DNA from: an uncultured bacterium
GTDB lineage: Bacteria > Chloroflexota > UBA5177 > JANWHV01
Direction of reading: 5' to 3'
Assembly (NCBI GenBank): GCA_963827235.1
Contig: CAWHAE010000016.1
Coordinates: 256,001 to 320,000, forward strand
DNA: 64,000 nucleotides
The notes beneath the pieces are model-generated. The model saw nothing but the letters and a program-made list of their open reading frames with translations, did no database searches and was not told the DNA's origin. Numbering within the stretch: position 1 is the stretch's first letter; each line of letters opens with the position of its first letter. A program made the position numbers and the translations under genes. Of the stretch, positions 28,661-49,930 are shown piece by piece.

Positions 28661-30478
28661 ATGAACCATCTCGACTTCACCTTTTCCGATACGATTGCCG
28701 GCTACGTCACCTCGTTCGATCAGGACTCGCGCACTTTTGGCATGAAGACCTCGGACGGCCGGCAATTCAACGTGAAGCTGAGCGACAACGCATACGCCGA
28801 GTTGATGCGCAACGCCGAGGAGCCATACGCGGACGCCACCGGCGCGATCACTCGCATGCTGGTACCCGGACGCTTCCTCTTTGCCTACGGCAGCTTCTAC
28901 CCGGAAGGGGAACTCTCCTACGAAGCCAAGCGCCTGATCTTCGTCGGCCGCGGGCCATCTGAGTACCTCTTCGAGAAGCCGGACTGGTGGATCAAACAGA
29001 TAGCCTCCGTCGGCGACTGCTACCTGAGGTGGCAGTTCGGCGAGCAGCCGATTGACTATCGCAACTACCGGACCATGATCAGCCTGACCGGTGGCAAGAA
29101 GAGGGACGACTTCCGGCAAGAGACCGACACCATCTCGCGCATGATCTACGGATTCGCATCGTGCTATTTGCTCACCGGGGAGGACCGGTTCCTGGAGGGC
29201 GCCGAGAAGGGCACGGAGTACCTGCGCGATCACATGCGCTTCGTCGACCGCGATGAAAACATTGTGTATTGGTACCACGGCATCGACGTGCACGGGAGCC
29301 GCGAGGACAAGGTGTTCGCCTCCGAGTTCGGCGATGACTACGACGCCATTCCGGCCTACGAGCAGATATACGCGCTGGCTGGTCCGATCCAGACATACCG
29401 GGTTACCGGGGATCCGCGCATCCTGTCCGACGCCGTGGCCACCATCGACCTGTTTGACAAGTTCTTCATCGACGACAAGGGCAAGGGGTACTTCTCGCAT
29501 ATCGACCCCATCACACTCGATCCGCGCGGTGAGAGCCTCGGTCGCAATCGCGCCAAGAAGAACTGGAACTCGGTCGGCGACCATGCGCCAGCCTATCTGG
29601 TAAATCTGTGGCTCGCCACGGGCGACGAGCGGTACGCGAAGATGCTCGACTACTGTGCGGACTGCATCGAGCAGTACTTCCCGGATGACGAGCACAGCCC
29701 CTTCGTGCAGGAGCGATTCTACGAAGACTGGAGCCACGACAAGACCTGGGGCTTCCAGCAGGATCGCGCGGTGGTTGGACACAACCTGAAGATCGCCTGG
29801 AACCTCACGCGCATCTACAACATGAATCCACAGGAGCGCTATGCCAAGCTGGCAAAGAAGATCGGCCACGTCATGCCTTCCGTGGGCTGCGACACGCAGC
29901 GTGGCGGCTGGTACGACATGGTCGAGCGCACGCTCAAACCGGGCGAGAAGTATCACCGCTTCTCATGGCACGACCGGAAGGCGTGGTGGCAGCAGGAACA
30001 GGCAATTCTCTGCTACCTGATTCTCGCCGGAACGTTCGGCGGCGACGAGAATCTCAAGCAGGCGCGCGAGGCTGCCGCGTTCTACAATGCCTACCACCTC
30101 GACCACGACGACGGCGGCGTGTACTTCAACGTGCTGGCCAGCGGCATTCCATACCTGGTGGGCACTGAGCGGTACAAAGGCAGCCACTCGATGAGCTTCT
30201 ACCACGCGTCGGAGCTCTGCTATTTGTCGGCAGTCTACATTAACCTGATGCTGACGAAGACGCCCATGGACTTCTACTTCAAGCCGTTGCCCGGCGCATT
30301 CCCAGGCAACGTGCTGCGCGTCTCGCCGGACATCCTGCCCCCCGGCAGCGTAAAGCTGACCTCCGTCTGGGTGGACGACGAGCCATACTCGGCCTTCGAT
30401 GCCGACGCCCTGACCGTGCAGCTACCCGACACTCGCGAGCAGGTGCGTGTGAAGGTGCAAATCACGCCGGTAGTCTAG
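28661..30478 (+). CDS. AGE (N-acylglucosamine 2-epimerase) family protein, long form with extra N- and C-terminal domains
   Basis: (alpha/alpha)6-barrel motifs SRMIYGFA, VGHNLKIAW, GGWYD, KAWWQQEQ, KGSHSMSFYH. Confidence 0.85.
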   Translation: MNHLDFTFSDTIAGYVTSFDQDSRTFGMKTSDGRQFNVKLSDNAYAELMRNAEEPYADATGAITRMLVPGRFLFAYGSFYPEGELSYEAKRLIFVGRGPSEYLFEKPDWWIKQIASVGDCYLRWQFGEQPIDYRNYRTMISLTGGKKRDDFRQETDTISRMIYGFASCYLLTGEDRFLEGAEKGTEYLRDHMRFVDRDENIVYWYHGIDVHGSREDKVFASEFGDDYDAIPAYEQIYALAGPIQTYRVTGDPRILSDAVATIDLFDKFFIDDKGKGYFSHIDPITLDPRGESLGRNRAKKNWNSVGDHAPAYLVNLWLATGDERYAKMLDYCADCIEQYFPDDEHSPFVQERFYEDWSHDKTWGFQQDRAVVGHNLKIAWNLTRIYNMNPQERYAKLAKKIGHVMPSVGCDTQRGGWYDMVERTLKPGEKYHRFSWHDRKAWWQQEQAILCYLILAGTFGGDENLKQAREAAAFYNAYHLDHDDGGVYFNVLASGIPYLVGTERYKGSHSMSFYHASELCYLSAVYINLMLTKTPMDFYFKPLPGAFPGNVLRVSPDILPPGSVKLTSVWVDDEPYSAFDADALTVQLPDTREQVRVKVQITPVV

Positions 30479-30543
30479 CCGGCGCGTACGATGCAACAGG
30501 TATTTGCGCATCACTGTTCGCGATTGCGCCGAGTGGGAGGGCG

Positions 30544-30885
30544 ATGATGGAGGTTCAGGTCAGCAACGCAGGTGGCGCCACCGTGGTAGTACTCTCCGGA
30601 GACATCGACGGCAGCACGGCGCCGATCGCTCAGGCGAAGATCCTCGAGCAGCTCGTGGCGGGCGAGGGGCTCATTCTGGACATGACTGCCGTGGCATACA
30701 TGTCAAGCGCCGGTTTGCGCATGATGCTATCGGCCCACAGGTCGGCGGCCGCCACGGGCGGCTCGGTTCGCCTTGTCGGCCTGTCCGAGGATTTGCAGGA
30801 CACCATGGCCGCTACAGGCTTCCTCGAGTTCTTCAATACGTATCCCACGGTCGCGGCGGCAGTCTCATCGCTGGGAAAGGGATAG
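30544..30885 (+). CDS. STAS-domain anti-sigma-factor antagonist (RsbV/SpoIIAA-like) 1
   Basis: LSGDIDGSTAP, LDMTAVAYMSSAGLR, TGF. Confidence 0.93.
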   Translation: MMEVQVSNAGGATVVVLSGDIDGSTAPIAQAKILEQLVAGEGLILDMTAVAYMSSAGLRMMLSAHRSAAATGGSVRLVGLSEDLQDTMAATGFLEFFNTYPTVAAAVSSLGKG

Positions 30886-30891
30886 CCGGCC

Positions 30892-33030
<2,139 letters not shown>

Positions 33031-33150
33031 TGCCGGCTGCTGGGCCGGCACGGTATCACGCCGCCCATGGCCGATTGATCGGCGGGCGTCAGTGTAACAG
33101 TTGAGCGTCATCGGCGGATGATCGGTGGCGCGGGGAATGGGAGGAAGACC

Positions 33151-33465
33151 ATGGCTTTTGAGGCAAAGCTCGAGATCGTCGGCGCCGAGGCACGGATCAC
33201 GCTCGCGGGCGAGCTCGACGCGAGTGCCGCTCCAGCGTTCCGAGAGAAGGTCGAGCAGGCGGCGGCCGGCCAGGTGAGCAAGCTGGTGATCATCATGTCC
33301 GATCTCTCATACATGGCCAGCGCCGGCTTGCGCGGCCTGATCTTCGCCAAGCAGAAGATGGGCGGCACGGTGGAGATCATCCTGGTAGGCATTCAGGAAG
33401 GCGTGAAAGAGACTCTGGAAATGACGGGCTTCCAGCACAGTGTGACAATGGTGGACGCCTACTAG
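33151..33465 (+). CDS. STAS-domain anti-sigma-factor antagonist 2
   Basis: LAGELDASAAP, LSYMASAGLR, MTGF; GGAGG RBS. Confidence 0.93.
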   Translation: MAFEAKLEIVGAEARITLAGELDASAAPAFREKVEQAAAGQVSKLVIIMSDLSYMASAGLRGLIFAKQKMGGTVEIILVGIQEGVKETLEMTGFQHSVTMVDAY

Positions 33466-33505: not shown

Positions 33506-34417
33506 ATGATTGAAGCGAGTGCCGCGCAGCCGGCCATCGACCCGGCTAAGCGCGAGGAGGCGCTGCTCAAGATCGAGCGGGACATTCAGATCGGTCGCGA
33601 TATCCAGGCGAGCTTCTTGCCCAAGACCCTCCCCGAGGTGCCGGGCTGGGAACTGGCAGCGCAATTCGAGCCTGCACGGGAGGTCGCGGGCGATTTCTAC
33701 GACGCCTTTCCCCTCAACCAGGGGAGGCGCCTTGGCATCGTCATTGCCGACGTGTGCGATAAAGGAGTGGGCGCGGCGCTTTTCATGGCGCTGTTCCGCA
33801 GCCTGATACGCGCTTTCGCTCAGCAACACTACTCGCTTCGCTGGATGGGCGACGAGGAAACGGACTTTCTGAGCAGCCCGGTAGCGGACCGCCGTCGAGG
33901 AATACCATCCACCGGCACTACTGCGCTCAAGAATGCTATGTCCCTAACGAACAACTACATCATCACGAACCACGGCGATACCAGCATGTTTGCCACGATG
34001 TTCTTCGGCGTGCTGGACCCCGCGTCGGGCGTGCTCACGTACATCAACGGTGGTCACTGCCCGCCCTGGCTCTTCAACGAGGCCGGTGTGAAGCGCCGGC
34101 TTACTCCCACCGGCCCTGCCGTGGGCATGGTGCCGGACGTGGATTTCGCCATCCAGCAGGTGACCTTTGCGCCAGGGGACATGCTTCTGGCCTTTACCGA
34201 TGGCGTGCCGGAGGCACGCGACCCGGACGGTGCCTTCTTCACCGAAGCGCGGTTGCGCACACTGATCAACAACCCGATGGCGGCCACGGCGAAGGAGCTG
34301 GTGACGCGAGTACTCGCACAGCTGACCACGCACATTGGCACCGCAGTGCAGTTCGACGACATCACCATGCTCGCGGTACGTCGGGCTGCCGAAACGACTG
34401 CGTCGGACGCTCCCTGA
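33506..34417 (+). CDS. PP2C/SpoIIE-type Ser/Thr phosphatase without a sensor domain
   Basis: AGDFYD, IADVCDKG, FTDGVPEA, DDITML; only a short N-terminal coiled segment. Confidence 0.95.
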   Translation: MIEASAAQPAIDPAKREEALLKIERDIQIGRDIQASFLPKTLPEVPGWELAAQFEPAREVAGDFYDAFPLNQGRRLGIVIADVCDKGVGAALFMALFRSLIRAFAQQHYSLRWMGDEETDFLSSPVADRRRGIPSTGTTALKNAMSLTNNYIITNHGDTSMFATMFFGVLDPASGVLTYINGGHCPPWLFNEAGVKRRLTPTGPAVGMVPDVDFAIQQVTFAPGDMLLAFTDGVPEARDPDGAFFTEARLRTLINNPMAATAKELVTRVLAQLTTHIGTAVQFDDITMLAVRRAAETTASDAP

Positions 34418-34479
34418 GAATGTATGCTGGCGCCGACATTGCCGGAGGCCCGAGACTTGAAGTCTCAAAGGAGACCATC

Positions 34480-34908
34480 GTGGACCGACTGACGCTACCT
34501 GGCACGCTGGATTCACTGGAAGCCATCGGTCAGCTCGTCCTGAGCGCGGCTAGCGAGGCCGGCCTCGACCGCAAAGCATCGTACCGCCTGCGGCTGGCGG
34601 TAGACGAGATCGCCACCAACATAGTCGTCCACGGCTATGACGAAGCGGGCCGGCAAGGCCCGATAGACATCTGGGTTGAGCTGGACGATGCGGAGCTACG
34701 CGTGTGCATGGAGGACGCGGCCCTCCCGTTCGATCCGCACGAGGCGCGCAAGCCTGCCGGCATGGATAGGCCCCTGGAGGAACGCCAAATCGGCGGTCTT
34801 GGCGTCTTCCTTGCCCTGCGTGGAGTCGACGATCTGCGCTACGAGCGGGCAGGAGAGCGAAACCGCAACGTCATCGTCGTGCATCGACCGCAGGCGCCGG
34901 CGCAGTAG
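34480..34908 (+). CDS. RsbW/SpoIIAB-like anti-sigma factor Ser kinase (HATPase_c_2)
   Basis: LAVDEIATNIVVHG, PFDP, IGGLGVFL; GTG start after AAGGAG. Confidence 0.93.
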   Translation: MDRLTLPGTLDSLEAIGQLVLSAASEAGLDRKASYRLRLAVDEIATNIVVHGYDEAGRQGPIDIWVELDDAELRVCMEDAALPFDPHEARKPAGMDRPLEERQIGGLGVFLALRGVDDLRYERAGERNRNVIVVHRPQAPAQ

Positions 34909-34938: not shown

Positions 34939-35694
34939 ATGCCTCGCATTATCTCGGTCCACAGCTACCGCGGAGGTACGGGAAAGTCGAACACCTCGGC
35001 GAATATGGCCGCGTTGCTGGCCGTGCGCGGGCAGCGCGTGGGCATCGTCGACACGGACATACTGTCGCCCGGCGTCCACGTGCTATTCGGTATGTCGCAG
35101 GACCCAACCGGCCCGGTGCTCAACGACTACCTCTGGGGCAAGTGCGAAATCAAGGACGCCGCCTACGATGTGACTGCCACGCTGTCCGCCGATGTGCGCG
35201 GCAAGGTGTTCCTGGTGCCGGCGAGCGTGCAGGCCAACAACATCGCACGCATCCTGCGTGAAGGATACGACGTCGGTCTGCTGAACGACGGGTTCAACGC
35301 TCTGGTCCGCGACCTCAAGCTGGATGCGCTGATCATCGATACTCACCCGGGGCTCAACGAGGAGACTCTGCTGTCCATCGCCATCTCCGACGTGCTCCTG
35401 ATCGTGCTACGGCCGGACTTGCAGGACTACCAGGGCACCGGCGTCACGGTGCAGGTGGCCCGCAAGCTGAGCGTTCCTCTCCTGCTACTGGTGGTGAACA
35501 AGTGCCCATCCAGCCTGGACCCGGACGCGGTACGAAAGCGCGTGCAGCAGGCCTACAACTGCGAGGTTGCTGCCGTGTTCCCCCACTCAGACGAGATCAT
35601 GACGCTTGCCAGCGGCGGCGTGTTTGTCCTCAAGTACCCTGACTTGCCCGTCACGGCCAGCTTCAAACACATGGTAGATCGCGTCCTTGAATAA
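34939..35694 (+). CDS. MinD/ParA family ATPase (non-division type)
   Basis: HSYRGGTGKS deviant Walker A, VDTD, IIDTHPG, VVNK. Confidence 0.92.
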   Translation: MPRIISVHSYRGGTGKSNTSANMAALLAVRGQRVGIVDTDILSPGVHVLFGMSQDPTGPVLNDYLWGKCEIKDAAYDVTATLSADVRGKVFLVPASVQANNIARILREGYDVGLLNDGFNALVRDLKLDALIIDTHPGLNEETLLSIAISDVLLIVLRPDLQDYQGTGVTVQVARKLSVPLLLLVVNKCPSSLDPDAVRKRVQQAYNCEVAAVFPHSDEIMTLASGGVFVLKYPDLPVTASFKHMVDRVLE

Positions 35695-35749
35695 CGGCTG
35701 CCGGCGAGCGCGCGCCCAGGCGCGTGGCTCTAGTGGGAGGGCTTCCGGC

Positions 35750-36100
35750 ATGCGTGCTGCCGAGATCCAGGATTGGTTCGAACGTACCTTGGACCAGCAA
35801 CGGGCAGGAGGCGTGACCGCAATCGACCTGCTTGACCTGCCGCCCGTACTGAACCAGATTCTGCGCGTGCTTCTCGCGCATGGGCCCATGACGGCTGCGC
35901 AGATGCGGGCGGCGCTTGCCGCCCTGCCCGACACGCTGTGGCTCGACAACAGCGATCTGTCATTGGCCCTCGACGGTCTCATTGAACGGCATTGGCTGCT
36001 CTGCGACTCCGGCGCGGCGGATCCGGTGTACCGGGTGAACCTTCGCGCGAAGGCCAGGATTAGCGCTGTGACAAAGGGAAGGGAGGCGCTCGATTTCTAG
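35750..36100 (+). CDS. Small hypothetical protein, probable winged-helix fold, with basic ...LDF tail
   Basis: GGGAGG RBS; ILRVLLAHGPMT...ALDGLIERHWL helix pattern; lies inside the operon. Confidence 0.7.
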   Translation: MRAAEIQDWFERTLDQQRAGGVTAIDLLDLPPVLNQILRVLLAHGPMTAAQMRAALAALPDTLWLDNSDLSLALDGLIERHWLLCDSGAADPVYRVNLRAKARISAVTKGREALDF

Positions 36101-36125: not shown

Positions 36126-37478
36126 ATGCTCAACGTCAGGCGCGGCGAATGGCCGGTACTTGGCAGGTTCTTGTTGCTGTTCGGCATCTTGAACCTGCTC
36201 ACCGATAGTGTGGACGTGCTGGCGACCAGCGATTATGTGCTCAACGTCGGCACCGACGCCATCCCGGTCATATGGTCCGCGGTCACCATTATGCTCGTTG
36301 TGGTCTCGGCCGCCTACACACTGATCGCCGATCGCTTCGCTCGCCGTGTCGTGCTTCGCATTCTGCTTGCTGCTTTTGGCCTCGCCTTCGTCGTGCTCTG
36401 GGCTCTGCTGGCCGACTCGCTCCTGCCCAAGCCGTTGCTCTACAACGCGCTCTATCTGCTGGATAACGTGCAGCTGATCGTGTTGCCGCTGGCTTTTTGG
36501 CCGGTGGCGAGCGATCACTACAACGTGGCAAACAGCACCAGGCTGTTTCCGGCCATCGCGCTGGCAGGACTCGTGGGCAAGATCCTGGGCAACTGGCTTG
36601 GCGGCGTCTCCGTGGCCTGGTTCAGCTCTCGCGGCTTGAACGGGAACGATGCCCTCCTGATCGCCAGCGGCGTGCTGCTGCTGGCCGCGGCGTTGATCCC
36701 GGCTCTCGTGCCGGCGCCACGAGCTTCGGAGAACGGATCACCGACGGCAAAGCTCGACATTATGGAGACTCTTCGCGAGGGCATGGACTTCGTGCGCGAA
36801 GTGCCCCTCTTTCGTTACCTGGCAATCGTGTTCTTCCTCAACCAACTGGTGATCACGGTGCTCGACTACCAGTACCTGGTGGTCGGCCACCAGCTGTTCC
36901 CCAGGGGCGCGGACTTCAGTGAGTTCTTCGGCAATTTGCGAGCCCTCTGGAACGTCACTGCCCTGGCCATGCAGATCATGATCGTCAGTCGCCTCAGCGA
37001 GCGACTGGGACCGAAGAACATCTTCTTCCTGGTGCCGGGCGTGTTGGTGGCCGGAATGGCCTTATCAGCTGCCGTATACGGGTTTATGAGCCTTGTTGTG
37101 GCTCGGGCCAGCGTGATCGCCAGTCGTTTCGCCTCCAACGTGCTGGCCACGACTTTCGAGAGGCCAGCGCGGAAGGCGGTGCAGGGCCTGGTGCCGGAGG
37201 GCAAGCGTGGGCGGGTAACGACATTCATCGACAGCTTCCTCTTCGCGATCGCTCAGATCATTGGCTGTGCCGTCCTGGGCGCGGGTGTTCTGCTGCGCCG
37301 CTCAGGCGCGCTGAGCCCAACTGCGGTGGCGATTGGCTACATGCTGATCGGAGCGGTGTGTGCCGTGCTCGCCGTCTACTTCGTGACCCGCCTGCGGGCC
37401 ACCTACGACGCCAGCCTGGTGAATTGGCGCCTGGCCAGGCGCAAACGCGGATCGGCGGTCGCCGGTCTCGATTTCTAG
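36126..37478 (+). CDS. Npt1/Npt2 (TLC, ATP/ADP translocase)-like MFS transporter
   Basis: About 12 TM helices; FWPVASDHYN...RLFPAI, DYQY, ERPARKAVQGLVPEGKRGRVTTFID. Confidence 0.75.
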   Translation: MLNVRRGEWPVLGRFLLLFGILNLLTDSVDVLATSDYVLNVGTDAIPVIWSAVTIMLVVVSAAYTLIADRFARRVVLRILLAAFGLAFVVLWALLADSLLPKPLLYNALYLLDNVQLIVLPLAFWPVASDHYNVANSTRLFPAIALAGLVGKILGNWLGGVSVAWFSSRGLNGNDALLIASGVLLLAAALIPALVPAPRASENGSPTAKLDIMETLREGMDFVREVPLFRYLAIVFFLNQLVITVLDYQYLVVGHQLFPRGADFSEFFGNLRALWNVTALAMQIMIVSRLSERLGPKNIFFLVPGVLVAGMALSAAVYGFMSLVVARASVIASRFASNVLATTFERPARKAVQGLVPEGKRGRVTTFIDSFLFAIAQIIGCAVLGAGVLLRRSGALSPTAVAIGYMLIGAVCAVLAVYFVTRLRATYDASLVNWRLARRKRGSAVAGLDF

Positions 37479-41993: not shown

Positions 41994-42587
41994 ATGAGCC
42001 ATGAGAAGAGGAAGCCTATGAATCTGGCAGGCGCGAAAGTCGGCGTGCTCATGGAGGGTGACTTCTACGAGAACGAGATCTTCTATTACCAGCATCGCTT
42101 TCCCGAGGAAGGGATGGACCTGCACTTCCTGACACGGCTGTGGGGCCAGCCGTCGCTGACCTTCCACGGGCACGAGTACAGAGTGCCGTTCGAGTGCGGC
42201 GAGAGCTTCGAGGACCTGGACGACCAAGCCCTGCGCAGCTTCGCGGCAATCATCGTGCCGGCAGGCATCGTCGCCGACCGCCTTCGCTATACCGAGGACA
42301 TCCACAAGCTGCCCCCGGCCGTTGAGTTCCTCAAGCGGGCCTTTGCCGAGCCAAGCGTCGTCAAGGGAATCATCTGTCACGGCATGTGGCTGGTGGCTCC
42401 CGTCCCCGAGCTGGTGCGCGGCCGGCGCGTCGTGGTGCACAACAACCTGATCGGGGACGCCCGCAACATGGGCGCCGTGTTTACCGACGAAGACGTCGTG
42501 GTCGACGGCGATCTGGTGACGGCGAGGACCGGTGGGCACTGCCACCAGTTCGCGCGCACGATTATCGACCTGCTGGCCGCCAGATAA
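41994..42587 (+). CDS. DJ-1/PfpI family protein
   Basis: DFYENE, GIICHG, VVVDGDLVTAR. Start may be ATG at 42018. Confidence 0.9.
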   Translation: MSHEKRKPMNLAGAKVGVLMEGDFYENEIFYYQHRFPEEGMDLHFLTRLWGQPSLTFHGHEYRVPFECGESFEDLDDQALRSFAAIIVPAGIVADRLRYTEDIHKLPPAVEFLKRAFAEPSVVKGIICHGMWLVAPVPELVRGRRVVVHNNLIGDARNMGAVFTDEDVVVDGDLVTARTGGHCHQFARTIIDLLAAR

Positions 42588-42610: not shown

Positions 42611-43057
42611 ATGGCTGAGCCCATCACCACGGATCAGATCAAGAAGTTCGTCGCCGCGTGGTTCCTGGCACTCGATCAGCACGACCCAATCGATCACTGC
42701 TATCCGCTGCTTGCCGACGAGGACCTCAACATGCAGTTCCCCGACGGTGACATCCGCGACCACCCCAGCTTCAAGGTCTGGTACGACCGGGTTACCAACC
42801 TCTTCTTCGACGAACAGCACATCGTGCAGACCGTGGACGCAGAGATCAAGGGCGAGGCGGCCAATCTGCGAGTGGTCGTCGGCTGGCAGGCCAGCTGGTG
42901 GGAGGCTCCGGCGGCAAAGAGCAAGCGCGTGTCGATGGACGCGACACAGGTCTGGACCGTGCGCCGCTCCGCCAAGAATCAGTACGGACTGGAGATCGTC
43001 GCCTACAACGCGACGGCCGAGCCGTTCAAGTACGCACCTGGGTTCGCGCGCCTGTAG
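42611..43057 (+). CDS. NTF2/SnoaL-like protein
   Basis: N-terminal helix FVAAWFLALD, LLADEDLNMQFP, then a beta-meander. Confidence 0.75.
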   Translation: MAEPITTDQIKKFVAAWFLALDQHDPIDHCYPLLADEDLNMQFPDGDIRDHPSFKVWYDRVTNLFFDEQHIVQTVDAEIKGEAANLRVVVGWQASWWEAPAAKSKRVSMDATQVWTVRRSAKNQYGLEIVAYNATAEPFKYAPGFARL

Positions 43058-43097: not shown

Positions 43098-43490
43098 ATG
43101 AAGAACGTGCCTGACACGGCTCTGGGCCGGATGTACCGCGAGCACATCCAGCACATTCTGGACAAGAACATCGATGCCCTGCTCGACCAGTACACGGACG
43201 ATGCCGTGCTGATAAGCAGCTTCGTTCGCAAACCGCTGATCTACAAGGGCCGCGCGGAGATACGAGAGCACATGCAGGGCATCCTCGGCATTCAGGGCCT
43301 GGACTCCGACATCGCCTTCTGGGCGGAAACCGAAGACCCACAGACTCTGATGATCGTCGAGGCGATCACTATGCAGACGGCCGACGGCGAAGCCCAGATG
43401 CGCTTCGCCGACAGTTGGGTTCTGCGCGAGGGACGAATCGCAGTTCACTTTGCCGGCATGACCCAGTATCCGGACGGCTCGGTGGCATAG
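43098..43490 (+). CDS. NTF2/SnoaL-like protein
   Basis: IDALLDQYTDDAVL, KGRAEIRE, DSWVLREGRI. Confidence 0.82.
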   Translation: MKNVPDTALGRMYREHIQHILDKNIDALLDQYTDDAVLISSFVRKPLIYKGRAEIREHMQGILGIQGLDSDIAFWAETEDPQTLMIVEAITMQTADGEAQMRFADSWVLREGRIAVHFAGMTQYPDGSVA

Positions 43491-43574: not shown

Positions 43575-45062
43575 GTGGCACCTGTCTCCCGGACCGTTCG
43601 TCCATGGGCTGCGTTCGCGCTTGCCGCCGTGGCGCAGCTCATGATCGTGCTCGACATCACGATCATCAATGTGGCGCTGCCATCTATCCAACGCGGCCTC
43701 AACTTCGCGCCGCAGGATCTGGCATGGGTGATCAACATCTACGTGTTAATGTTCGGCGGATTCCTGCTACTGGGTGGGCGGGCCGGAGATCTGTTCGGGC
43801 GCAGGCGCCTATTCATTGGGGGCATGGCGCTGTTCTCACTGGCCTCCCTGTTCGGGGGACTGTCGCAGAACGCAGGATGGCTAGTGGCCGGCCGTGCCGC
43901 ACAAGGCCTGGGCGGCGCCATGATCACGCCGGTCGCGCTGGCCATCGTGAGCAGCGTGTTTCCCGAGGGAGCGCAGCGCAACCAGGCCCTGGGTATCTTC
44001 GGCGCGCTCGGCGGGCTGGGTGGAGCACTGGGTGTGCTGCTCGGCGGCATCCTCACCACCTACGCCTGGCAGCTCGTGTTGTTCGTAAACGTGCCGATCG
44101 GCGCCGCCGTGATCTTGCTCAGCCCCGTCTATATCCCGGCAGACAAGGGCAGCGGCGCCACTGGCGGCTTCGACCTGCAAGGTGCGGTGTCGGCCACCGC
44201 TGGGCTATGCCTGTTGGTATTCGGCGTTGTCAAGTCGACCGATTTCGGCTGGGCTTCATGGCAGACCATTGGCTGCTTGGGTGGTGCCGCGGTGCTTCTG
44301 GTCGCCTTCGTGGCCATCGAGCAACGCGCACCGGCGCCCTTGCTCCGCCTGGGCATATTCCGCAACCAGTCGCTGGCGGTCGCCAACGTGTTGAGTCTCC
44401 TTACCGGGCTGGTGATATTCGCGATGTTCTACTTCCTGTCGCTGTACCAGCAGTGGATCATCGGCTACTCACCGCTCAAAACGGGATTCGCCTATATCCC
44501 GTTGGCCATGGGAATCATCGTGGCGGCGGGTATCTCCTCGGGCATGGTGACGCGCTTCGGATTCAAGTACATGATCGCCGTCGGCATGGCGCTGTCCACC
44601 GTCGGGCTAATCCTTTTCGTGAAGCTACCAGTGAACGGATCGTACGCCGCGAACCTGCTGCCAGGCATGCTGATCGTGGCCGTAGGGCTGGGCTTCATCT
44701 TCGTGCCGCTGCCAATCGCGGGCGTTGCCCACGTGGACAAAGAGGAGCTCGGCATGGCGTCCGGACTGATCAATGCGACGCAGCAGATCGGCGGCGCGAT
44801 CGGCTTGGCAGTGCTGATGACAATCTGCACGAACCGTTACAACGACTTGATGTCACCCTATCTGAATTCAGCCAAGGGTCTCAGTACAGCGCAGTTTGAC
44901 ATGAAGTACGGAGCACAGGTCTCGTCGGCGTACGTGAGCGGCTTCCATTACGCGTTCGCCGTGTCGGCCGTGGTGATGGTCGTAGGCGTAGCGCTGACCT
45001 TCGTGCTGTTGCCCGCCCACCGGCGAGCAGCGAGCGAGGTCGCGAGCGTGGCCACAGCGTAG
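43575..45062 (+). CDS. DHA2 (14-TM) MFS efflux transporter
   Basis: LDITIINVALPSI, GGRAGDLFGRRR, LFVNVPIG. Confidence 0.95.
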   Translation: MAPVSRTVRPWAAFALAAVAQLMIVLDITIINVALPSIQRGLNFAPQDLAWVINIYVLMFGGFLLLGGRAGDLFGRRRLFIGGMALFSLASLFGGLSQNAGWLVAGRAAQGLGGAMITPVALAIVSSVFPEGAQRNQALGIFGALGGLGGALGVLLGGILTTYAWQLVLFVNVPIGAAVILLSPVYIPADKGSGATGGFDLQGAVSATAGLCLLVFGVVKSTDFGWASWQTIGCLGGAAVLLVAFVAIEQRAPAPLLRLGIFRNQSLAVANVLSLLTGLVIFAMFYFLSLYQQWIIGYSPLKTGFAYIPLAMGIIVAAGISSGMVTRFGFKYMIAVGMALSTVGLILFVKLPVNGSYAANLLPGMLIVAVGLGFIFVPLPIAGVAHVDKEELGMASGLINATQQIGGAIGLAVLMTICTNRYNDLMSPYLNSAKGLSTAQFDMKYGAQVSSAYVSGFHYAFAVSAVVMVVGVALTFVLLPAHRRAASEVASVATA

Positions 45063-45145
45063 CGGGCGATTGCACCGCGCAGCTTAACCCTGGCAGGCGG
45101 CGCGGGGCCGCTTGCCGGTCAGTCGAGGAGGAACGAAAGAGACAG

Positions 45146-46006
45146 ATGTCCGCCATACACAACAAATACCTGGCCATGCGTTACTTCCAGGAGATTATGA
45201 CCGACGCCAATCTGGCCACGGTCTATGAAATACTGTCGCCTGAGTTTGTCTTTACGCTGCCGACGCATCCGCACCCCTACGTTGGCCCGGACGGCTTCAC
45301 CGAGCTGGTGACCATGCTGCACAGCTGCTTCCCCGACTTCCACATCGATGCCAAAGACATGATTGCATCCGGCGACACGGTGGTGACGCGCTGGCGCGGC
45401 GGCGGCACCCACCTGGGCGCCGCCATCAAGACCGTGGCGGGCGACGTCCCGGCCACCGGGCGTTCGTTCGAGATCGACGGCATGACCTGGCATCGCATGG
45501 AAGCAGGCAAAATCGTCGAGGCGATCGGGCACGAGGACACGGTTGGCATGTTCGCGCAGCTCGGCATCATTCCGAGCGGCATGAATGCCACCACTCCGGA
45601 GCAGAACCTCGCCATGTCCCACCGCTACTTCGAGGAAGTGATGAACCAGGGAAAGCTGAACGTCATAGAGGAGATCATGACGCACGACTTCCAGTTCATC
45701 ATTCCCACCCAGCCGGCCCCGATCACCGGCTTCGCGAACATGAGCGGATTCGTAACCTACCTCCGCGGCGCCTTCCCCGATATCACGTTCACAGTTGAGC
45801 GCGAGATCGCGGTCGATAACAAGGTTGCTTCTCGCTGGTCAATAACCGGTACTCACCTCGGCGAGTTTTTGGGCAAGGAGCCGTCTGGGAATTCGATCAA
45901 GGACTACGGCATCGACATCTTCACCTTTGAAAACGGCCGCATCAAGACCGTGCACGTCAATGAGAACGACTTCGGACTGTTCCAGCAGCTTGAGCCCAAG
46001 GCATGA
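45146..46006 (+). CDS. Tandem SnoaL-like ester cyclase domain protein
   Basis: Two copies of FPD...GTHLG...P(A/S)TG-like motif. Confidence 0.9.
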   Translation: MSAIHNKYLAMRYFQEIMTDANLATVYEILSPEFVFTLPTHPHPYVGPDGFTELVTMLHSCFPDFHIDAKDMIASGDTVVTRWRGGGTHLGAAIKTVAGDVPATGRSFEIDGMTWHRMEAGKIVEAIGHEDTVGMFAQLGIIPSGMNATTPEQNLAMSHRYFEEVMNQGKLNVIEEIMTHDFQFIIPTQPAPITGFANMSGFVTYLRGAFPDITFTVEREIAVDNKVASRWSITGTHLGEFLGKEPSGNSIKDYGIDIFTFENGRIKTVHVNENDFGLFQQLEPKA

Positions 46007-46064
46007 CCCAGGATGTCCTAGGCCTCCGGTCGATCCCGGACGGCACGAGTAGGGAGGAAGCAAC

Positions 46065-46985
46065 ATGTCGCTAGCAGAGAACCGGGCAATCACGTTGCGC
46101 ATGTTTGAGCTGGTCAACGCAGGCCAGTTCGAGGCGCTGGGCGAAGTGGTCGACACCAATTTCCTGGATCATGGCCCCGGCCAGGGCGGCGGCCTGGCCG
46201 GGCTGCAGCGCGGGCTGCACATGATGCATGCCGCCTTGCCCAACTTGCACTTCGGCGTCGACCAGGTGATCGCTGAAGGCGATGTGGTAGCCATACGTGG
46301 CAATCTGACGGCCACCTTCACCGGCGGGCCGTTCTGGGGTGTGCCGGCCACTGGAAAGAGCGCCAAGTGGCTGAGCTTCATGGTCATGAAGCTCAGCGGC
46401 GGCAAGATCGTCGAGCGATGGGTCAACGCGGACACCTGGGGCATGCTGCAGCAGGTGGGCGTGCTACCTCAGACGCCGATGGACGTGAAGCCGCTGCTGC
46501 AGGACGGCCCCGTCGCGCTGAACATCGTGACCGATGCCGGCGGCGAGCTGGTGGAGAGCAACAAACGCCTCACGCAGGAGCTGATCGATCGCGTGTGGAA
46601 TAAGCGCGACGTCGGCGCCGTGGACGAGCTCTTCGCGCCCAAGGGAGGATGCGCCAACGGGGACTTCGTCCTGCGTCCGGATGTGATCAAGATGTTCGGC
46701 GGTATGGTATTCGCCGCGTTCCCAGATTTCAGCGCCACAGTTGAGTTCATGCGGGGCGAGGGCAACACGGTGATTGCCCGTGTCGACGAAGGAGGGATGC
46801 ACACCGGGGAATTCATGGGAGTGCCGGCCACTCAAAAGACCGTGCGCTGGTCGGAAACGTTCTGTCTTGTCTTCGAAGACGGCAAGATCACTCGCGCCTG
46901 GCTACAACCCGACACGATGGGCATGATGCAGAAAATGAGCGCCTTCCATCCGTTGGTGCCCGCCGACGCCGCTAAGAACGGCTAA
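46065..46985 (+). CDS. Tandem SnoaL-like ester cyclase domain protein
   Basis: IAEGDVV...GVPATGK and FPDF...HTGEFMGVPATQK. Confidence 0.9.
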   Translation: MSLAENRAITLRMFELVNAGQFEALGEVVDTNFLDHGPGQGGGLAGLQRGLHMMHAALPNLHFGVDQVIAEGDVVAIRGNLTATFTGGPFWGVPATGKSAKWLSFMVMKLSGGKIVERWVNADTWGMLQQVGVLPQTPMDVKPLLQDGPVALNIVTDAGGELVESNKRLTQELIDRVWNKRDVGAVDELFAPKGGCANGDFVLRPDVIKMFGGMVFAAFPDFSATVEFMRGEGNTVIARVDEGGMHTGEFMGVPATQKTVRWSETFCLVFEDGKITRAWLQPDTMGMMQKMSAFHPLVPADAAKNG

Positions 46986-47000
46986 TTCTGTACGGAGAAG

Positions 47001-47438
47001 ATGAGGATGTCTACCGAAGCTGAGAATCTCGCGTTGTTCCGCCGATTCATCGACGAGTTCTTCAATAAGCGCAAATTCGAGCTGGCAGAGGAGCTCTTCC
47101 ACCCCGAGCATTACAGCCCAAGCCTGCCCTTGCTCCCGCCTGGGCCGGAAGGCATGAAGATCATCGCCGGCGTCGTGTGCGGCATCTTCACTGGATTCCA
47201 CCGCGAGCTGGAAGAGGTATTTGCCTCGGGCGATATGATCGCCGCTCGCTGGACCAACAGTGGCACGCACGACGGCGTCTACATGGGCGTGCCCCCCACG
47301 GGCAAGTTCGTCAAGTGGTGGGAGCTGGCCATGGTGCAGTTCAAGGAAGGCAAGATCGCGGTAGGGTGGTACCGACCCGATGAGGTCGGCCTGTTGAAGG
47401 AGCTGGCTCCTGAACGGCTCGAGTGGCTTCACATGTGA
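47001..47438 (+). CDS. SnoaL-like ester cyclase
   Basis: SGTHDGVYMGVPPTGK, FKEGKI. Confidence 0.9.
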   Translation: MRMSTEAENLALFRRFIDEFFNKRKFELAEELFHPEHYSPSLPLLPPGPEGMKIIAGVVCGIFTGFHRELEEVFASGDMIAARWTNSGTHDGVYMGVPPTGKFVKWWELAMVQFKEGKIAVGWYRPDEVGLLKELAPERLEWLHM

Positions 47439-47454: not shown

Positions 47455-47772
47455 ATGAAGATTCTGGCGATCATCGACCTGGCGCCCGGCACGACGCCCG
47501 ACCAGATAGCTCCATTTCTCAAGGCGGAAGCGGCGCGCGCCTGGGAGCTGCACAAGGCCGGCATATTCCGCGACATGAACTTCTGCACCGATAGGCCGCG
47601 CGTGGTCAACACCCTCGAGTGCACCTGCCTGGAAGAGGCGGCGGAAGCCGTGAACTCGCTGCCGCTGACCAAAGCCGGCTACTTCACCTACCAGCTGATG
47701 CCGCTCGGCTACCCATCGTTCCTGGAGAATCTCTGGGTCGCGCATGAGTCGGGGGGTCGAGCAGGTGAGTAG
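47455..47772 (+). CDS. Muconolactone isomerase-like dimeric alpha+beta barrel protein
   Basis: [16 protein letters not shown]...SLPLTKAGY...LMPL; GGAGG RBS. Confidence 0.7.
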
Positions 47773-49292
47773 CGAACAACGTGCCGACTTCATCGTCGTA
47801 GGTGCAGGCGCGGCGGGCTGCGTGCTCGCCAACCGCCTGAGCGCGGACCCGGGAACGCGAGTGCTGCTCCTGGAAGCCGGACCGCCGGACAGCGAGCCGC
47901 GCATCCACAATCTGGACGGCTTCGTGCAGCTGTGGGGAACTGAGGTCGACTGGGCCTTCGCCACCGAGCCGCAACCCGGCTTGAACGGGCGGCAGAATCC
48001 TGCTCAATCAGGGCAAGGTCTACGGCGGCGGCAGCTCCATTCACGCCATGATGTACGTCCGCGGGAACCGCATCAATTTCGACCAGTGGAACGCCCAGGG
48101 AGCCGACGGCTGGTCCTACGACGACGTCTTGCCGTACTTCAAGAAGTCCGAGAACTACTCTGGTGGTGCGTCGGAATACCGGGGCGTCGGGGGCCCTCTC
48201 GACGTGAAGCCTTGCCCGGATCCCGTTGCCCGCTCCTTGACATTCCAGCAGGCCGCGGTACAACTGGGCTTCAGCGGTCCCGAGTGGGACTACAACGGGC
48301 CCCGCCAGGAGGACGGAGCCGGATACATTCAGTTCAACGTCGACGCCGAAGGCCGCCGCGCCAGCGCGGCCACGGCCTTCCTGCAGCCGGTACTGGCCCG
48401 GCCGAACCTGACGGTTGTGTCCGGTGCCCTCGCGACTAAGGTGATCTTCGACGGCACTCGCGCCGTCGGTGTGGAATACCTGAAAGGCGGCCAGACGTGC
48501 AAGGCAATGGCCTCCGCTGAGGTGATTCTCAGCGCCAGTGCCTTCCTGAGCCCCGCGCTCCTGATGCGCTCTGGCATCGGACCGGCGCAGCACCTGCGAG
48601 AGAAGGGCATCCCCGTGCTGGCAAATCTGCCCGGCGTAGGTCAGAACCTGCACGACCACCTGCAGATCTCCGTGATCTATAAATCGCGCGTGGCCCTGGG
48701 CGATCCCACGTTGCTGACCGGGAACGCGCTCTTCACGAAGACGCGCAAGGGCATGAAAGCGGCGCCACCCGACCTGCAGATTATCTACAGTCCGGGAGTT
48801 CCCAAGGCGCTCTCGGCTGCTATCCCAGTGCCGCGCCCGGCCAGCATCTTCGTGCCCATTCTGGTGCAGCCGTATAGCCGTGGAGAAGTCCGGCTGCACT
48901 CTGCCAATCCGGCTGAGGCGCCGCTGATCGATCCGCACTATCTGGAATGCCGGAGCGACCTCGACACGCTGGTGCAATCGGTCAAGCTCGTGCGCCAAAT
49001 TGCCGCCGCGCCGGCGTTTGCCGACCTCAACGACGGCGAGCTGGCGCCGGGCGCGGATGCCGACCTCGAGGATTACATCCGCGGCAGCGCTACGACAATC
49101 TGGCATCCCGTGGGCACATGCAAGATTGGCCGCGATGCCATGGCGGTCGTGGACCCCGATCTTCGCGTGTACGGAGTGACTGGTCTGCGCGTGGCCGACG
49201 CTTCGGTGATGCCGACGGTGCCCAGCGGTAACACGTTCGCCGGCTGCGTCATGATCGGCGAGAAGCTCGCCGATATGCTGATCGGGCAGTAA
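47765..49292 (+). pseudogene. GMC (choline dehydrogenase-like) FAD oxidoreductase with a +1 frameshift at about 47996 (probably a sequencing error)
   Basis: VGAGAAGC...LLEAG in one frame; [32 protein letters not shown] in the next. Deleting one A gives [14 protein letters not shown]. Confidence 0.9.
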
Positions 49293-49516
49293 GCCCAAAC
49301 TTCAACGGCTCTACATCGGTTCAGCCACGGACTCGGGCACCCGAGGCGCCGGTCTCGGGCGTCGAGAGTGCTGGCTCATTGAGGCCGGGACGCCCGCCGG
49401 GCGGAGCAGGCGAGAGCGTGCACCGCGAGGCGGGCGGCGCCGTCCAGGGATCGGCACGCTGCCCGTGGTTTCTCACAGGCAGCGTTCACGGGTAGATAGA
49501 GAGGTCGTGGAGACTG

Positions 49517-49930
49517 ATGACTGCATTCGCCCACGTTGGGTTGACATGCGACGACCCCGTCGCCATCGAGCGATTCTACACCAAGCACTTCGGCTTCCAG
49601 CGTGCGCGCGTAATCCCGCTGGGCGCCGAGCAGATCGTGTTCATCAAGTCCGGCAGTGTCTACCTTGAGCTCTTCCAGGCAAAGGAGCGGGCGCCCATCG
49701 GGCCGCCGGCCCAGGACGGCTATGGCTGGCCCGGCCTGCGGCATCTAGCCTTCTCCGTGGACGACGTGGATGCAAAGCTGGCCGAGCTCGGCGATGAGGT
49801 CAAGGTCACCCTCGGTCCGCTGGATTTTGGCGACTTCATTCCCGGCTGGCGGGGAGCATGGGTTGCCGATCCGGAAGGGAATATTATCGAGATCAGCCAG
49901 GGCTATCAGGACGACAGCACTCTGGCTTAG
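49517..49930 (+). CDS. VOC/glyoxalase family protein
   Basis: HVGL, FYTKHFGF, LELF, RHLAF, DPEGNIIE. Confidence 0.92.
   Translation: MTAFAHVGLTCDDPVAIERFYTKHFGFQRARVIPLGAEQIVFIKSGSVYLELFQAKERAPIGPPAQDGYGWPGLRHLAFSVDDVDAKLAELGDEVKVTLGPLDFGDFIPGWRGAWVADPEGNIIEISQGYQDDSTLA

Follow-up and report, generated by a model that had tools for sequence, protein, structure and literature searches.

A probable icfG-type cluster with linked enzyme modules in an uncultured Chloroflexota bacterium

A block of 23 genes in an uncultured Chloroflexota bacterium is probably an icfG-type cluster equipped with the fullest accessory enzyme modules seen so far. It occupies positions 28,661–49,930 of the window, i.e. 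the 64,000-nucleotide stretch that was analysed (contig CAWHAE010000016.1, positions 256,001 to 320,000, assembly GCA_963827235.1). Sequence orthology places its first six genes (g01–g06) in the core of such clusters, and the tie between this core and two sets of enzyme genes, here termed E1 and E2, is new. Conserved synteny and co-occurrence across genomes take the cluster beyond chance. The cluster is widespread, and its conserved extra enzymes offer concrete routes to its function; in this bacterium, whose phylum rarely has one, it is doubled.

All 23 genes are open reading frames on the + strand, as the preliminary description had them, with spacers of −29 to 97 nt except for 224 nt upstream of the VOC gene. 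Co-direction is insufficient to define the cluster, because the same-strand run overshoots both limits (at least 24,874–54,036). Promoter and terminator scans stayed at chance level, with no detectable operon signals. Gene labels were accepted where a curated cut-off was reached or a fold supported them; most of those proposed previously held, while the Npt/TLC, GNAT, wHTH and MIase labels proved weak. Two samples were used: the neighbourhoods (10 kb around AGE) of the best 80 of 583 AGE relatives, and 301 genomes of the phylum, of which 9 carry AGE and 292 do not.

The core and its cyanobacterial counterpart

The core opens with an AGE-superfamily enzyme of 605 aa (g01, 28661..30478; PF07221, 48 bits), the orthologue of Slr1855, built of an N-terminal beta domain, an (alpha/alpha)6 barrel and a C-terminal beta domain. 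Its AF2 model (pLDDT 93.3) finds glucose and cellobiose 2-epimerases as top PDB folds, and its identity to the AGE of the best 80 of 583 relatives, from many phyla, is 63–69%. H374, H515 and R160 are retained; since Lys377 replaces the Glu that relatives have in the epimerase motif GHxxExxW, g01 may not be an epimerase. A single-domain STAS protein of the anti-sigma antagonist type follows in the Slr1856 position (STAS1, g02, 30544..30885; PF01740, 78 bits), with Ser54/Ser55 invariant in 29 orthologues. The third gene encodes a GlgX2-type isoamylase of GH13 with CBM48 (g03, 30892..33030; TIGR02100, 714 bits, cut-off 641), in which the motifs GFRFD, AEAW and CHD are all present with Asp/Glu/Asp retained, and which shares only 46% identity with the genome's third glgX. 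The remaining three are STAS2 (g04, 33118..33465; PF01740, 63 bits; Slr1859 position), a PP2C/SpoIIE phosphatase (g05, 33506..34417; PF07228, 160 bits; IcfG position) and an RsbW/SpoIIAB-like serine kinase (g06, 34420..34908; PF13581 (HATPase_c_2), 74 bits; Slr1861 position). The phosphatase is a short form of 303 aa that lacks a sensor domain; its orthologues have a median of ~510 aa and varied N-termini. Among the best 80 of 583 loci, STAS1 follows AGE in 73, and STAS2 (76), GlgX orthologues of at least 60% identity (67), the kinase (55) and PP2C (49) recur near it.

These six genes, from AGE to the RsbW-like kinase, correspond to the slr1855–slr1861 genes of the Synechocystis icfG cluster, the slr1852-1862 operon (PMC8670252, PMC12329169). 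A Synechocystis salina locus keeps the same core order, with identities of 65/45/70/54/46/42%. The preliminary description was right about similar cyanobacterial neighbourhoods, but it knew of no characterised match, and this part had already been described as icfG in those sources. Its mention of actinobacterial neighbourhoods found no echo in the titles of the best 80 of 583 loci (0/80), a count that does not exclude them.

The partner switch of Synechocystis is known from biochemical work; its kinase, Slr1861, is the SigC anti-sigma factor (PMC12329169, PMC8670252). SigC is not listed among the icfG cluster genes in the available portions of these sources, so the lack of a sigma gene is nothing out of the ordinary. 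The absence that had been read as an anomaly is itself real (all 27 Sigma70_r2 matches of the genome fall outside both the window and the second copy of the cluster), but on the SigC precedent a sigma factor acting in trans would suffice as output. A domain search of the 23 genes likewise agreed with the earlier statement that glgA/B/C/P, treY/Z, PKS and NRPS are missing. Mobilisation of glycogen, in contrast, has become doubtful. According to a preprint, Synechocystis GlgX2 (Slr1857) showed no in vitro debranching in a GlgP-coupled assay, and a mutant lacking it had no phenotype (bioRxiv 10.1101/2022.11.21.517384), so that the glucan link is unproven.

Enzyme modules linked to AGE

Module E1 comprises DJ-1, NTF2b, GMC and VOC genes. 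The DJ-1/PfpI protein (g14, 41994..42587; PF01965) has an ICHG Cys-His elbow and PfpI, PH1704 and YhbO as nearest solved relatives, and NTF2b is a SnoaL_2/NTF2-like protein (g16, 43098..43490; PF12680). The GMC flavin oxidoreductase (g22, 47744..49292), which has choline, alcohol and HMF oxidases as its nearest solved relatives, matches both GMC_oxred_N and GMC_oxred_C when both frames are read; its earlier label stands, but a one-base frameshift near 47,990, which splits the gene over two frames, had been overlooked. The gene is unbroken in the second copy and in a genome of the same genus (G001). The VOC/glyoxalase-I-like metalloprotein (g23, 49517..49930; PF00903) carries H6, E51, H76 and E125. 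Module E2 consists of a ThiJ-like member of the DJ-1 superfamily with an ECYG elbow (g12, 39304..40143; PF17124, 79 bits), a ThDP enzyme of the benzoylformate-decarboxylase (BFD) type (g13, 40241..41944) and NTF2a (g15, 42611..43057). The ThDP enzyme has all three TPP domains and the GDGG...NN motif, and is nearest to BFD in PDB and NCBIfam by matches under the cut-off. NTF2a had zero Pfam matches; its AF2 model (pLDDT 91.5) matches NTF2-like dehydratase/isomerase folds at TM ~0.75. Retained residues predict catalytic competence for AGE, GlgX, DJ-1 (Cys-His), VOC (H/E/H/E) and the ThDP enzyme (GDGG...NN).

Among the best 80 of 583 loci, 25 have two or more E1/E2 orthologues no farther than 10 kb from AGE, and these are spread over at least six phyla (by title, Chloroflexi-type 9, Cyanobacteria 8, Contendobacter 3, unclassified 2, and Spirochaetia, Trueperaceae and Desantisbacteria 1 each). 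The identities of the orthologues are 35–79%, mostly 55–79% with NTF2a and GMC lower, and their placement around AGE follows at least four arrangements (upstream co-directional, downstream, divergent, split). In the same 80 of 583 loci, orthologues were counted for DJ-1 (24), VOC (24, mostly directly upstream of AGE), GMC (17), NTF2b (14) and, at 55% identity or more, the ThiJ-like protein (10); NTF2a lies near AGE in 12, and some DJ-1-superfamily gene lies within 10 kb in 64.

The phylum sample gives the same association. Six of the 301 genomes have a ThDP orthologue (59% identity or more); all six are AGE-positive, with the gene on the AGE contig and within ~12 kb. The AGE-negative genomes have none (0/292), and the closest match there reaches 39–44%. 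DJ-1 orthologues occur in 8/9 AGE-positive versus 0/292 AGE-negative genomes, at 2.2–2.7 kb from AGE in five. Fusions are a further tie: the 10 long AGE relatives scanned included four AGE–DJ-1 and two AGE–STAS proteins, and in one of the latter (P0121) the fused STAS domain is nearer to STAS2 (E 1e-13) than to STAS1 (3e-6). Many genomes thus keep homologues of AGE, DJ-1 and ThDP together, and more rarely one of MinD as well, which bears out the linkage originally proposed.

The association is not strict. A whole-genome search did not find the ThDP gene in 17/25 AGE-positive genomes, and its orthologue is apart from AGE in two to four, on a different contig (L011, L038) or apparently on the same scaffold at a distance of tens of kb or more (L008, possibly L048). 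Some of the co-occurrence could stem from co-transfer of an island, and genomes that are related do not count independently. E1 and E2 are accessory rather than essential, because they are absent from most cyanobacterial loci, which have genes for CMD, ABM, EthD, VOC and SnoaL proteins and for multi-domain fusions in their place.

A gated sugar side pathway or a stress island

On balance, we read the cluster as a sugar side pathway that is gated by a phospho-switch and runs through carbonyl intermediates; we infer the chemistry, including its dicarbonyl steps, from enzyme family names only. The PP2C phosphatase and the RsbW-like kinase would set the phosphorylation of the two STAS proteins, whose genes are interleaved with those of a putative AGE-type sugar C2-epimerase/isomerase and the GlgX2-type GH13 enzyme. 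As output, the kinase may sequester a sigma factor whose gene lies elsewhere, on the pattern of Slr1861 and SigC, and a STAS domain may also act directly on the AGE enzyme. GlgX2 and AGE would work on an oligosaccharide or hexose that derives from an alpha-glucan, and bulk glycogen need not be involved. AGE would shift the reducing-end carbonyl, its accompanying DJ-1 protein would handle the products as oxo-sugars or alpha-dicarbonyls, and E1 and E2, where carried, would join in. The reactive-carbonyl link suggested earlier is plausible from these families.

The main alternative, which we regard as unlikely, is a general-stress island in which the switch drives a sigma factor encoded elsewhere and protective enzymes are co-regulated with no single pathway or dedicated product, DJ-1, VOC, NTF2, CMD and GMC proteins guarding against glycation, carbonyl stress and peroxides. 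The families are typical of small stress and detoxification proteins, the enzyme set is interchangeable, as the cyanobacterial replacements indicate, and the Synechocystis operon is salt- and CO2-responsive (PMC12329169, PMC8670252) and has a kinase with SigC as target. Generic detoxifiers, however, would not be expected only with AGE, yet ThDP and DJ-1 orthologues are missing from every AGE-negative genome of the phylum sample. Neither a GMC oxidase nor a ThDP enzyme of the BFD type is a usual stress protein, orthologues share 55–79% identity between phyla, and the AGE–DJ-1 fusions point to joint work on one substrate.

Genes particular to the lineage and the second copy

The second, diverged copy lies on the same contig (54–89% amino-acid identity) and retains the core, E1, E2, MinD and HAMP genes in rearranged order; G001 retains the same set across an inversion. 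A third accessory module, found less often, would consist of MinD, a TLC-like MFS protein and the HAMP sensor, with input or localisation as its probable role. The MinD/ParA-type P-loop ATPase (g07, 34939..35694; ParA and AAA_31 matches, Walker A SYRGGTGKS) has archaeal MinD and FleN as nearest solved relatives, and phmmer finds relatives in 11 of the best 80 of 583 loci. The 12-TM MFS-like transporter (g09, 36126..37478) has only an MFS_1 match that misses the cut-off; it is possibly TLC/Npt-like, its orthologue in L086 being just over the TLC cut-off (22.7 vs 21). Its relatives lie downstream of PP2C/MinD in L007, L034, L041, L045 and L086. The membrane sensor (g10, 37544..38599) has two TM segments, HAMP (22.1 bits vs a cut-off of 25) and a coiled coil, with no output domain on sequence inspection; relatives occur in L007, L086, L034 and the second copy, and the MinD–MFS–HAMP order of L007 is identical to the window's.

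Lineage-specific additions would explain the DHA2 pump, g08, g11 and the majority of the SnoaL copies. The small protein g08 (35687..36100; AlkZ-like wHTH, 19.8 bits vs 25.9), whose true start is probably Met22 at ~35750, and the weakly GNAT-like 176-aa g11 (38676..39206; zero Pfam matches, ArsN2 42.5 bits vs 125) are genus-restricted, with homologues confined to the second copy and G001. The DHA2-family efflux pump (g17, 43575..45062; TIGR00711, 238 bits vs 230) is missing from both and has a relative in only 1 of the best 80 of 583 loci. The weakly assigned MIase-like g21 (47455..47772; PF02426, 24.9 bits vs 26.7) likewise has a relative in 1 of these 80. Of the same 80 loci, 20 have SnoaL-family genes close to AGE; among the tandem double SnoaL genes g18 and g19 and the single g20 (45146..47438; PF07366, PF12680), close orthologues are confined to g18 (77% identity in the second copy, 74% in G001, 65% in L046).

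A biosynthetic cluster that would convert stored glycogen into a small, sugar-derived metabolite for export, use SnoaL-type cyclases and the DHA2 pump and be triggered by the phospho-switch is improbable. Such a cluster would account for the pump and five SnoaL domains, and GMC oxidase with NTF2-like dehydratase folds could yield pyrone- or furanone-type products from hexoses. The claimed export, however, rests on a pump specific to the window copy, g19–g21 have no orthologues elsewhere in the best 80 of 583 loci, the oxidase is frameshifted, a core biosynthetic enzyme is absent from the 23 genes, and GlgX2 was no working debrancher in the one species tested. Of the preliminary interpretation, the linkage, the cyanobacterial parallel and carbonyl plausibility stand, whereas novelty of the core, glycogen and export are unsupported or weakened. 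Chance placement of an icfG-type operon beside unrelated same-strand operons is very improbable: the long same-strand run, the lack of operon signals and the genes not conserved beside AGE in the best 80 of 583 loci (g08, g11, g17, g19–g21) would fit it, and for these genes alone it is possible, but for E1, E2 and MinD it is contradicted, E1/E2 genes turning up next to AGE in six or more phyla and in varied arrangements, in the second copy and as fusions.

The icfG-type core

The core of the window cluster is of the icfG type: judged by sequence and gene order, the first six of the 23 plus-strand genes at window 28,661-49,930 are the icfG cluster of Synechocystis (slr1855-slr1861 type). Sampling one genome per species returned at least 583 relatives of the AGE-family protein, of which the best 80 loci were kept with 10-kb flanks. 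The record titles of these 80 loci are cyanobacterial in 56 cases and not in 24 (Anaerolineae/Caldilineaceae/Chloroploca, Contendobacter, Acidobacteriota, Myxococcales, Gemmataceae, Spirochaetia, Trueperaceae, Desantisbacteria and unclassified), and the icfG-type cluster is not specific to cyanobacteria. The window AGE is 63-69% identical to the AGE of all 80 kept loci (the best 80 of at least 583), and 66-70% identical to proteins named in their sources as cyanobacterial AGE-family enzymes. Orthologues of the other core genes were found within the 10-kb flank for STAS1 (73/80 loci), STAS2 (76/80), GlgX (67/80), kinase (55/80) and PP2C (49/80), many of the loci counted as negative being short contigs. 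The order AGE-like, STAS, isoamylase, STAS with adjoining PP2C and RsbW-like kinase is shared by the window, most of the 80 loci and the Synechocystis salina locus L079, which reads DJ-1, AGE, STAS, GlgX, STAS, PP2C, kinase and matches the six window proteins at 65, 45, 70, 54, 46 and 42% identity, respectively (tblastn).

In Synechocystis, the operon slr1852-1862 is described, in passages of PMC8670252, as holding Slr1855 (AGE), Slr1856 (STAS), GlgX and IcfG. According to passages of PMC12329169, Slr1861 is the anti-sigma factor of SigC and phosphorylates Slr1856, Slr1859 and Ssr1600, Slr1856 is dephosphorylated by IcfG, and mutants in icfG fail on glucose when inorganic carbon is low; the cluster has been tied to the glucose/inorganic carbon balance since the 1990s (Beuf 1994, Shi 1999, cited in PMC12329169). 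Such activities are known from Synechocystis only; the conserved Ser54/55 of STAS1 and the kinase and PP2C domains of the window are compatible with a phosphorylation switch of this type. The preliminary description had remarked on the missing sigma factor gene, and the remark is correct: of the 27 Sigma70_r2 matches in the genome, none falls in the window or in a second cluster copy, and the match nearest to the cluster lies at C16:385356. Because the passages on Synechocystis do not name the sigma factor among the cluster genes either, its absence here is no anomaly.

The window and the icfG cluster of Synechocystis sp. PCC 6803 (slr1852-slr1862) thus share the gene order from AGE-like to RsbW-like kinase, and a DJ-1-family gene is a member of both, although the window DJ-1 is of another subtype (30% identical to that of L079) and lies downstream. 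The window PP2C, in contrast, is short and has no sensor domain, and the window has no slr1852-like or CMD genes. It additionally carries a ThiJ-like gene, a ThDP enzyme and an NTF2-like gene (NTF2a), besides GMC, VOC, MinD, MFS transporter, HAMP, DHA2 and many SnoaL genes, and the genome holds two copies. With RsbV-RsbW-RsbU and SpoIIAA-SpoIIAB-SpoIIE of Bacillus, the window shares the close grouping of a STAS protein whose phosphorylatable Ser is conserved, a kinase of the HATPase_c_2 type and a PP2C phosphatase, but it has two STAS genes interleaved with enzyme genes and no sigma factor gene in or near the cluster. In the SiaABCD system of Pseudomonas aeruginosa, a kinase/PP2C pair controls a small switch protein, SiaC, which is not a canonical STAS and whose target is an enzyme and not a sigma factor. 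The likeness is functional and by analogy only, the window having no diguanylate cyclase; the HAMP region of the window sensor gene matches that of SiaA weakly. The nfs partner switch of Anabaena (PMC13712970) was rejected as an equivalent, being a different cluster. Five Nostoc loci (L059, L064, L071, L080 and L081) show a variant order of glgX (about 49% identity), AGE and a single STAS2-like gene; kinase and PP2C genes are missing from the surroundings, and a response-regulator-fused pyridine-nucleotide-disulphide oxidoreductase lies downstream.

Gene content, second copy and MinD-like genes

The assembly (8.0 Mb in 21 contigs, 95.9% complete, 9% contamination) places the 23 genes at spacers of -29 to 97 nt, except for 224 nt before the last gene. 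Pfam and NCBIfam bore out most of the labels given to them in the preliminary description, namely the AGE-family protein, two STAS, GlgX, PP2C/SpoIIE, RsbW-like kinase, MinD/ParA, ThiJ-like, ThDP enzyme, DJ-1, SnoaL_2, DHA2 pump (exceeding the TIGR00711 cut-off), three SnoaL genes (two of them tandem double domains), GMC oxidoreductase and VOC. Only sub-threshold matches stand behind the labels Npt/TLC, HAMP, GNAT, wHTH and MIase. NTF2a has no Pfam match, and its AF2 model (pLDDT 91.5) has an NTF2-like fold. The reported absence of glg/tre synthesis genes, PKS and NRPS from the 23 genes was likewise confirmed with Pfam and NCBIfam, which also found no domain of any other core scaffold-forming enzyme of secondary metabolism (terpene synthase and the like). 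The GMC gene (window 47,744-49,292) is spread over two frames, with a one-base frameshift near 47,990, and is intact in the second copy and in a genome of the same genus (G001); either recent pseudogenisation or an indel in the assembly could account for the frameshift.

Since the same-strand run outreaches the cluster, co-direction alone is not the argument for a cluster. Promoter-like and terminator-like sites in window 27,000-46,900 occur at shuffle level (4 against 3.9 expected and 11 against 10.5 expected, respectively), and the sequencing runs matching this DNA comprise two DNA runs (0.05 share of words) and no RNA run. Just upstream on the same strand (window 24,874-27,436) lie genes for a homologue of LarA-type lactate racemases (with Lar_N and LarA_C) and for an alpha/beta hydrolase, which are not conserved with the cluster. 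Three more co-directional genes follow VOC at window 49,962-53,079: the first two have no Pfam match and the third is of the PQQ_2/BamB type. The first also follows VOC in the same-genus genome, at 76% identity, and a paralogue of it on contig C10 is 60% identical.

The second cluster copy lies about 600 kb from the window copy on the same contig (C16, ~896.7-923.3 kb; loci L095 and L096), with 54-89% protein identity. Its plus strand carries the genes from AGE to MinD, the small protein, the HAMP sensor, the weakly GNAT-like gene, ThiJ-like, ThDP, DJ-1, VOC and NTF2a, and its minus strand, upstream, carries SnoaL genes, the intact GMC and the second NTF2-like gene (NTF2b); both MFS genes and g19-g21 (the last two SnoaL genes and the MIase-like gene) are absent from it. 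In the same-genus genome, the set is kept across an inversion and a gap of ~10 kb, without the DHA2 pump and g19-g21.

MinD-like genes, which with a transporter and a sensor gene make up a third and rarer module beside the two enzyme modules described below, occur in 11 of the 80 loci. In L007, MinD is followed by a TLC-like MFS transporter and a HAMP sensor, in the order of the window; L034 and L086 likewise have both genes, and L041 and L045 have the transporter. Strong relatives of the HAMP sensor gene (g10) are present in five of the 80 loci (L007, L017, L034, L045 and L086), with weak ones in L008 and L013. A reading of g10 as the sensor half split off from a long PP2C was considered and set aside; the N-termini of the long PP2Cs vary, and many have no TM segments. 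The window transporter (g09) matches MFS_1 only, below the cut-off, and has neither an NCBIfam match nor a PF03219 (TLC) match above the cut-off; its relative in L086 scores 22.7 for TLC against a cut-off of 21. The window MinD clearly matches the MinD/ParA family overall, and its Walker A, SYRGGTGKS, has Arg in place of the signature Lys of the deviant Walker A motif of the family (KGGxxGK[ST]). In two Nostoc loci (L008:14591-16883 and L013:14913-17145), a MinD-like gene directly follows GlgX, with kinase, PP2C and STAS2 on the opposite strand; in L008, the next gene encodes a CHAT-domain protein.

Linkage of the accompanying enzymes to AGE

Seven of the genes downstream of the core are linked to AGE both physically and phyletically. 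When all window proteins were searched by tblastn against the best 80 AGE loci, orthologues within 10 kb of AGE were found for DJ-1 (24/80 loci, 62-75% identity), VOC (24/80, 53-71%), GMC (17/80, 40-64%), NTF2b (14/80, 45-79%), NTF2a (12/80, 36-72%), ThDP (11/80, 57-69%) and ThiJ-like (10/80, 58-75%), and at least two of these seven genes occur in 25 loci. They form two modules, E1 (GMC, NTF2b, DJ-1 and VOC), mostly directly upstream of AGE, and E2 (ThiJ-like, ThDP and NTF2a). Most loci carry the modules upstream and in the same direction. The modules run divergently in Chloroploca and are split in a Pseudanabaena locus; in the window, as in the Desantisbacteria locus and those of Contendobacter, they lie downstream of the kinase. 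Counting the Synechocystis-type gene directly upstream of AGE, a DJ-1-superfamily gene lies within 10 kb of AGE in 64/80 loci, and a DJ-1 protein is almost part of the core. Next to the cluster, a membrane protein of the TMEM175 family (PF06736) is found repeatedly, in L041:9219-9899 and seven other loci, mostly between VOC and AGE; in the second copy, the gene follows NTF2a (C16:922,563-923,288), and it is absent from the window copy.

The linkage extends to whole genomes. AGE is present in nine of 301 sampled genomes of the window's phylum, and ThDP orthologues (at least 59% identity) in six, all of them AGE-positive and with ThDP on the AGE contig within ~12 kb. None of the 292 AGE-negative genomes has a ThDP orthologue, the next best matches being 39-44% identical, and DJ-1 orthologues are distributed similarly (8/9 AGE-positive and 0/292 AGE-negative genomes). 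The six ThDP-bearing genomes are spread over three sampled families (f1, f22 and f47), related genomes not being independent; other phyla supply separate cases of the linkage. Among the genomes searched, E1 and E2 occur only with AGE. The converse does not hold for ThDP: whole-genome searches of 25 AGE-positive genomes without ThDP in the flank found an orthologue in eight (about four just past the flank, the rest on another contig or much further off) and none in 17, including Synechocystis, Trichodesmium and Microcystis, and E2 is therefore accessory.

Natural fusions join AGE to both DJ-1 and STAS. Among ten longer AGE-family representatives scanned for domains, two are AGE-STAS fusions (P0121 and P0123) and four are AGE-DJ-1 fusions (P0142, P0147, P0148 and P0156). 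The fused DJ-1 is 35% identical to the window DJ-1 and keeps the Cys-His elbow, and the fused STAS is nearer to STAS2 (E 1e-13) than to STAS1 (3e-6). Together with the Nostoc-type fusion described below, these proteins speak for joint action of the small enzymes with AGE and for an effect of a STAS domain on AGE itself; the AGE-STAS fusions in relatives suggest the enzyme as a direct STAS target. Complex prediction for AGE with STAS1, the STAS that the fused domain resembles less, gave a median score of 0.27 against a mark of 0.32, which speaks neither for nor against binding. In nine loci of the Nostoc type, a fusion protein of ~1,100 aa is encoded upstream of AGE, and the one scanned (L009:3040-6564) contains CMD, EthD, VOC, SRPBCC/AtaL and SnoaL domains.

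Enzymes and a possible sugar pathway

The AF2 model of the window AGE (pLDDT 93.3) has an (alpha/alpha)6 barrel between two beta domains. Sequence matches to the PDB are marginal only (E 0.007), and Foldseek retrieves 8h1k/8h1n and 3wkf at E 1e-18 with target-normalised TM-scores of 0.78-0.82, which places the protein in the barrel fold; among PDB folds, the best matches are to glucose 2-epimerase, cellobiose 2-epimerases, mannose isomerase, AGEs and YihS. Compared with the AGE superfamily (Runsl_4512 glucose 2-epimerase, cellobiose 2-epimerase and YihS), the barrel is the same (target-normalised TM-score 0.74-0.87), whereas the window protein exceeds these enzymes by ~200 aa, carries a beta domain at either end and is only 11-19% identical. 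A profile alignment pairs H374 with the His of GHDIEATW, GHAIEGAW and GHNSEFAW, and Y514-H515 with the YH of 5zig; R160 is invariant and H374 and H515 are at least 90% conserved. H374 and H515 occupy the two catalytic His positions and R160 that of the substrate-binding Arg, and the Glu of GHxxExxW is an active-site residue. This Glu is replaced by Lys377 (GHNLKIAW), which is itself at least 90% conserved in the family.

The catalytic motifs of GlgX, ThDP, DJ-1 and VOC are intact. GlgX scores 714 bits for TIGR02100 (cut-off 641) and has the GH13 catalytic Asp/Glu/Asp motifs (GFRFD352, AE389AW and CHD463). The nearest relatives of the ThDP enzyme are benzoylformate decarboxylases, those of GMC are choline, alcohol and HMF oxidases, and those of VOC are glyoxalase-family proteins; the nearest solved relatives of DJ-1 are PfpI, PH1704 and YhbO. 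As in the carbonyl-detoxifying enzymes of these families (glyoxalase I and the PfpI/YhbO/PH1704 deglycases), the window DJ-1 has the Cys-His nucleophile elbow and the window VOC four metal ligands. Unlike them, all window scores fall below the NCBIfam equivalog cut-offs, and window-type genes are tied, and sometimes fused, to AGE.

The cluster enzymes may share one sugar-derived carbonyl substrate, and one chemically coherent, hypothetical scheme can be drawn for them: at the reducing end, AGE would form a ketose or ene-diol for oxidation to a 2-oxoaldehyde by the GMC enzyme, DJ-1 and VOC would rearrange the 2-oxoaldehyde to an acid, and the ThDP enzyme would cleave or decarboxylate the keto product. 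The switch, for its part, may gate AGE and GlgX2 directly and also work via a sigma factor encoded elsewhere. Taken jointly, it is conceivable, albeit rather doubtful, that the icfG-type cluster is an unrecognised, phosphorylation-gated sugar pathway spread across many phyla. A STAS domain would directly switch an AGE-type enzyme with Lys for the active-site Glu, which would act with a non-classical GlgX2 on a specific alpha-glucan-derived oligosaccharide, and the dedicated DJ-1, VOC, NTF2, GMC and ThDP enzymes would convert the oxo-sugar/alpha-dicarbonyl intermediates, beyond mere detoxification. If true, the cluster would provide a new path that links storage carbon to central metabolism or leads to a signal molecule.

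The cluster core is already known. Four features were not found in the literature outside subscription journals and supplements and are apparently new within that scope: the strict co-occurrence of E1/E2 with AGE, the fusion of AGE to DJ-1, the replacement of Glu by Lys in the active site and the presence of two cluster copies in one genome. The same holds for any link of the DJ-1/VOC genes to AGE. The same literature returned no paper on the function of the AGE, DJ-1 or E1/E2 genes, and slr1855 appears as a list entry only in the relevant parts of PMC8385029 and PMC3276265. Slr1855 and GlgX2 have had no assigned function so far, and our results make the function of Slr1855, GlgX2 and the DJ-1 protein Slr1854 testable; the questions opened for the bench are which sugar AGE acts on, whether DJ-1 takes the AGE product and whether STAS binds to AGE. 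Many carriers are titled cyanobacteria, Contendobacter or Amarolinea. These are glycogen-storing organisms, and the answer therefore bears on how photosynthetic and wastewater bacteria store carbon.

The preliminary description had proposed glycogen mobilisation and the export of a product, and these are its weakest ideas. Export is weakened because the DHA2 pump is specific to the window copy, and glycogen mobilisation because GlgX2 is not a proven debrancher: the Synechocystis orthologue is reported, in the relevant passages of a preprint, to show no debranching in a GlgP-coupled assay and no phenotype upon deletion (bioRxiv 10.1101/2022.11.21.517384), its role being called elusive there in 2025 (bioRxiv 10.1101/2022.11.21.517384). 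A third isoamylase-type glgX of the genome (C16:707,102-709,189; L094), 46% identical to that of the window, adjoins a phosphoketolase gene, away from any glg operon.
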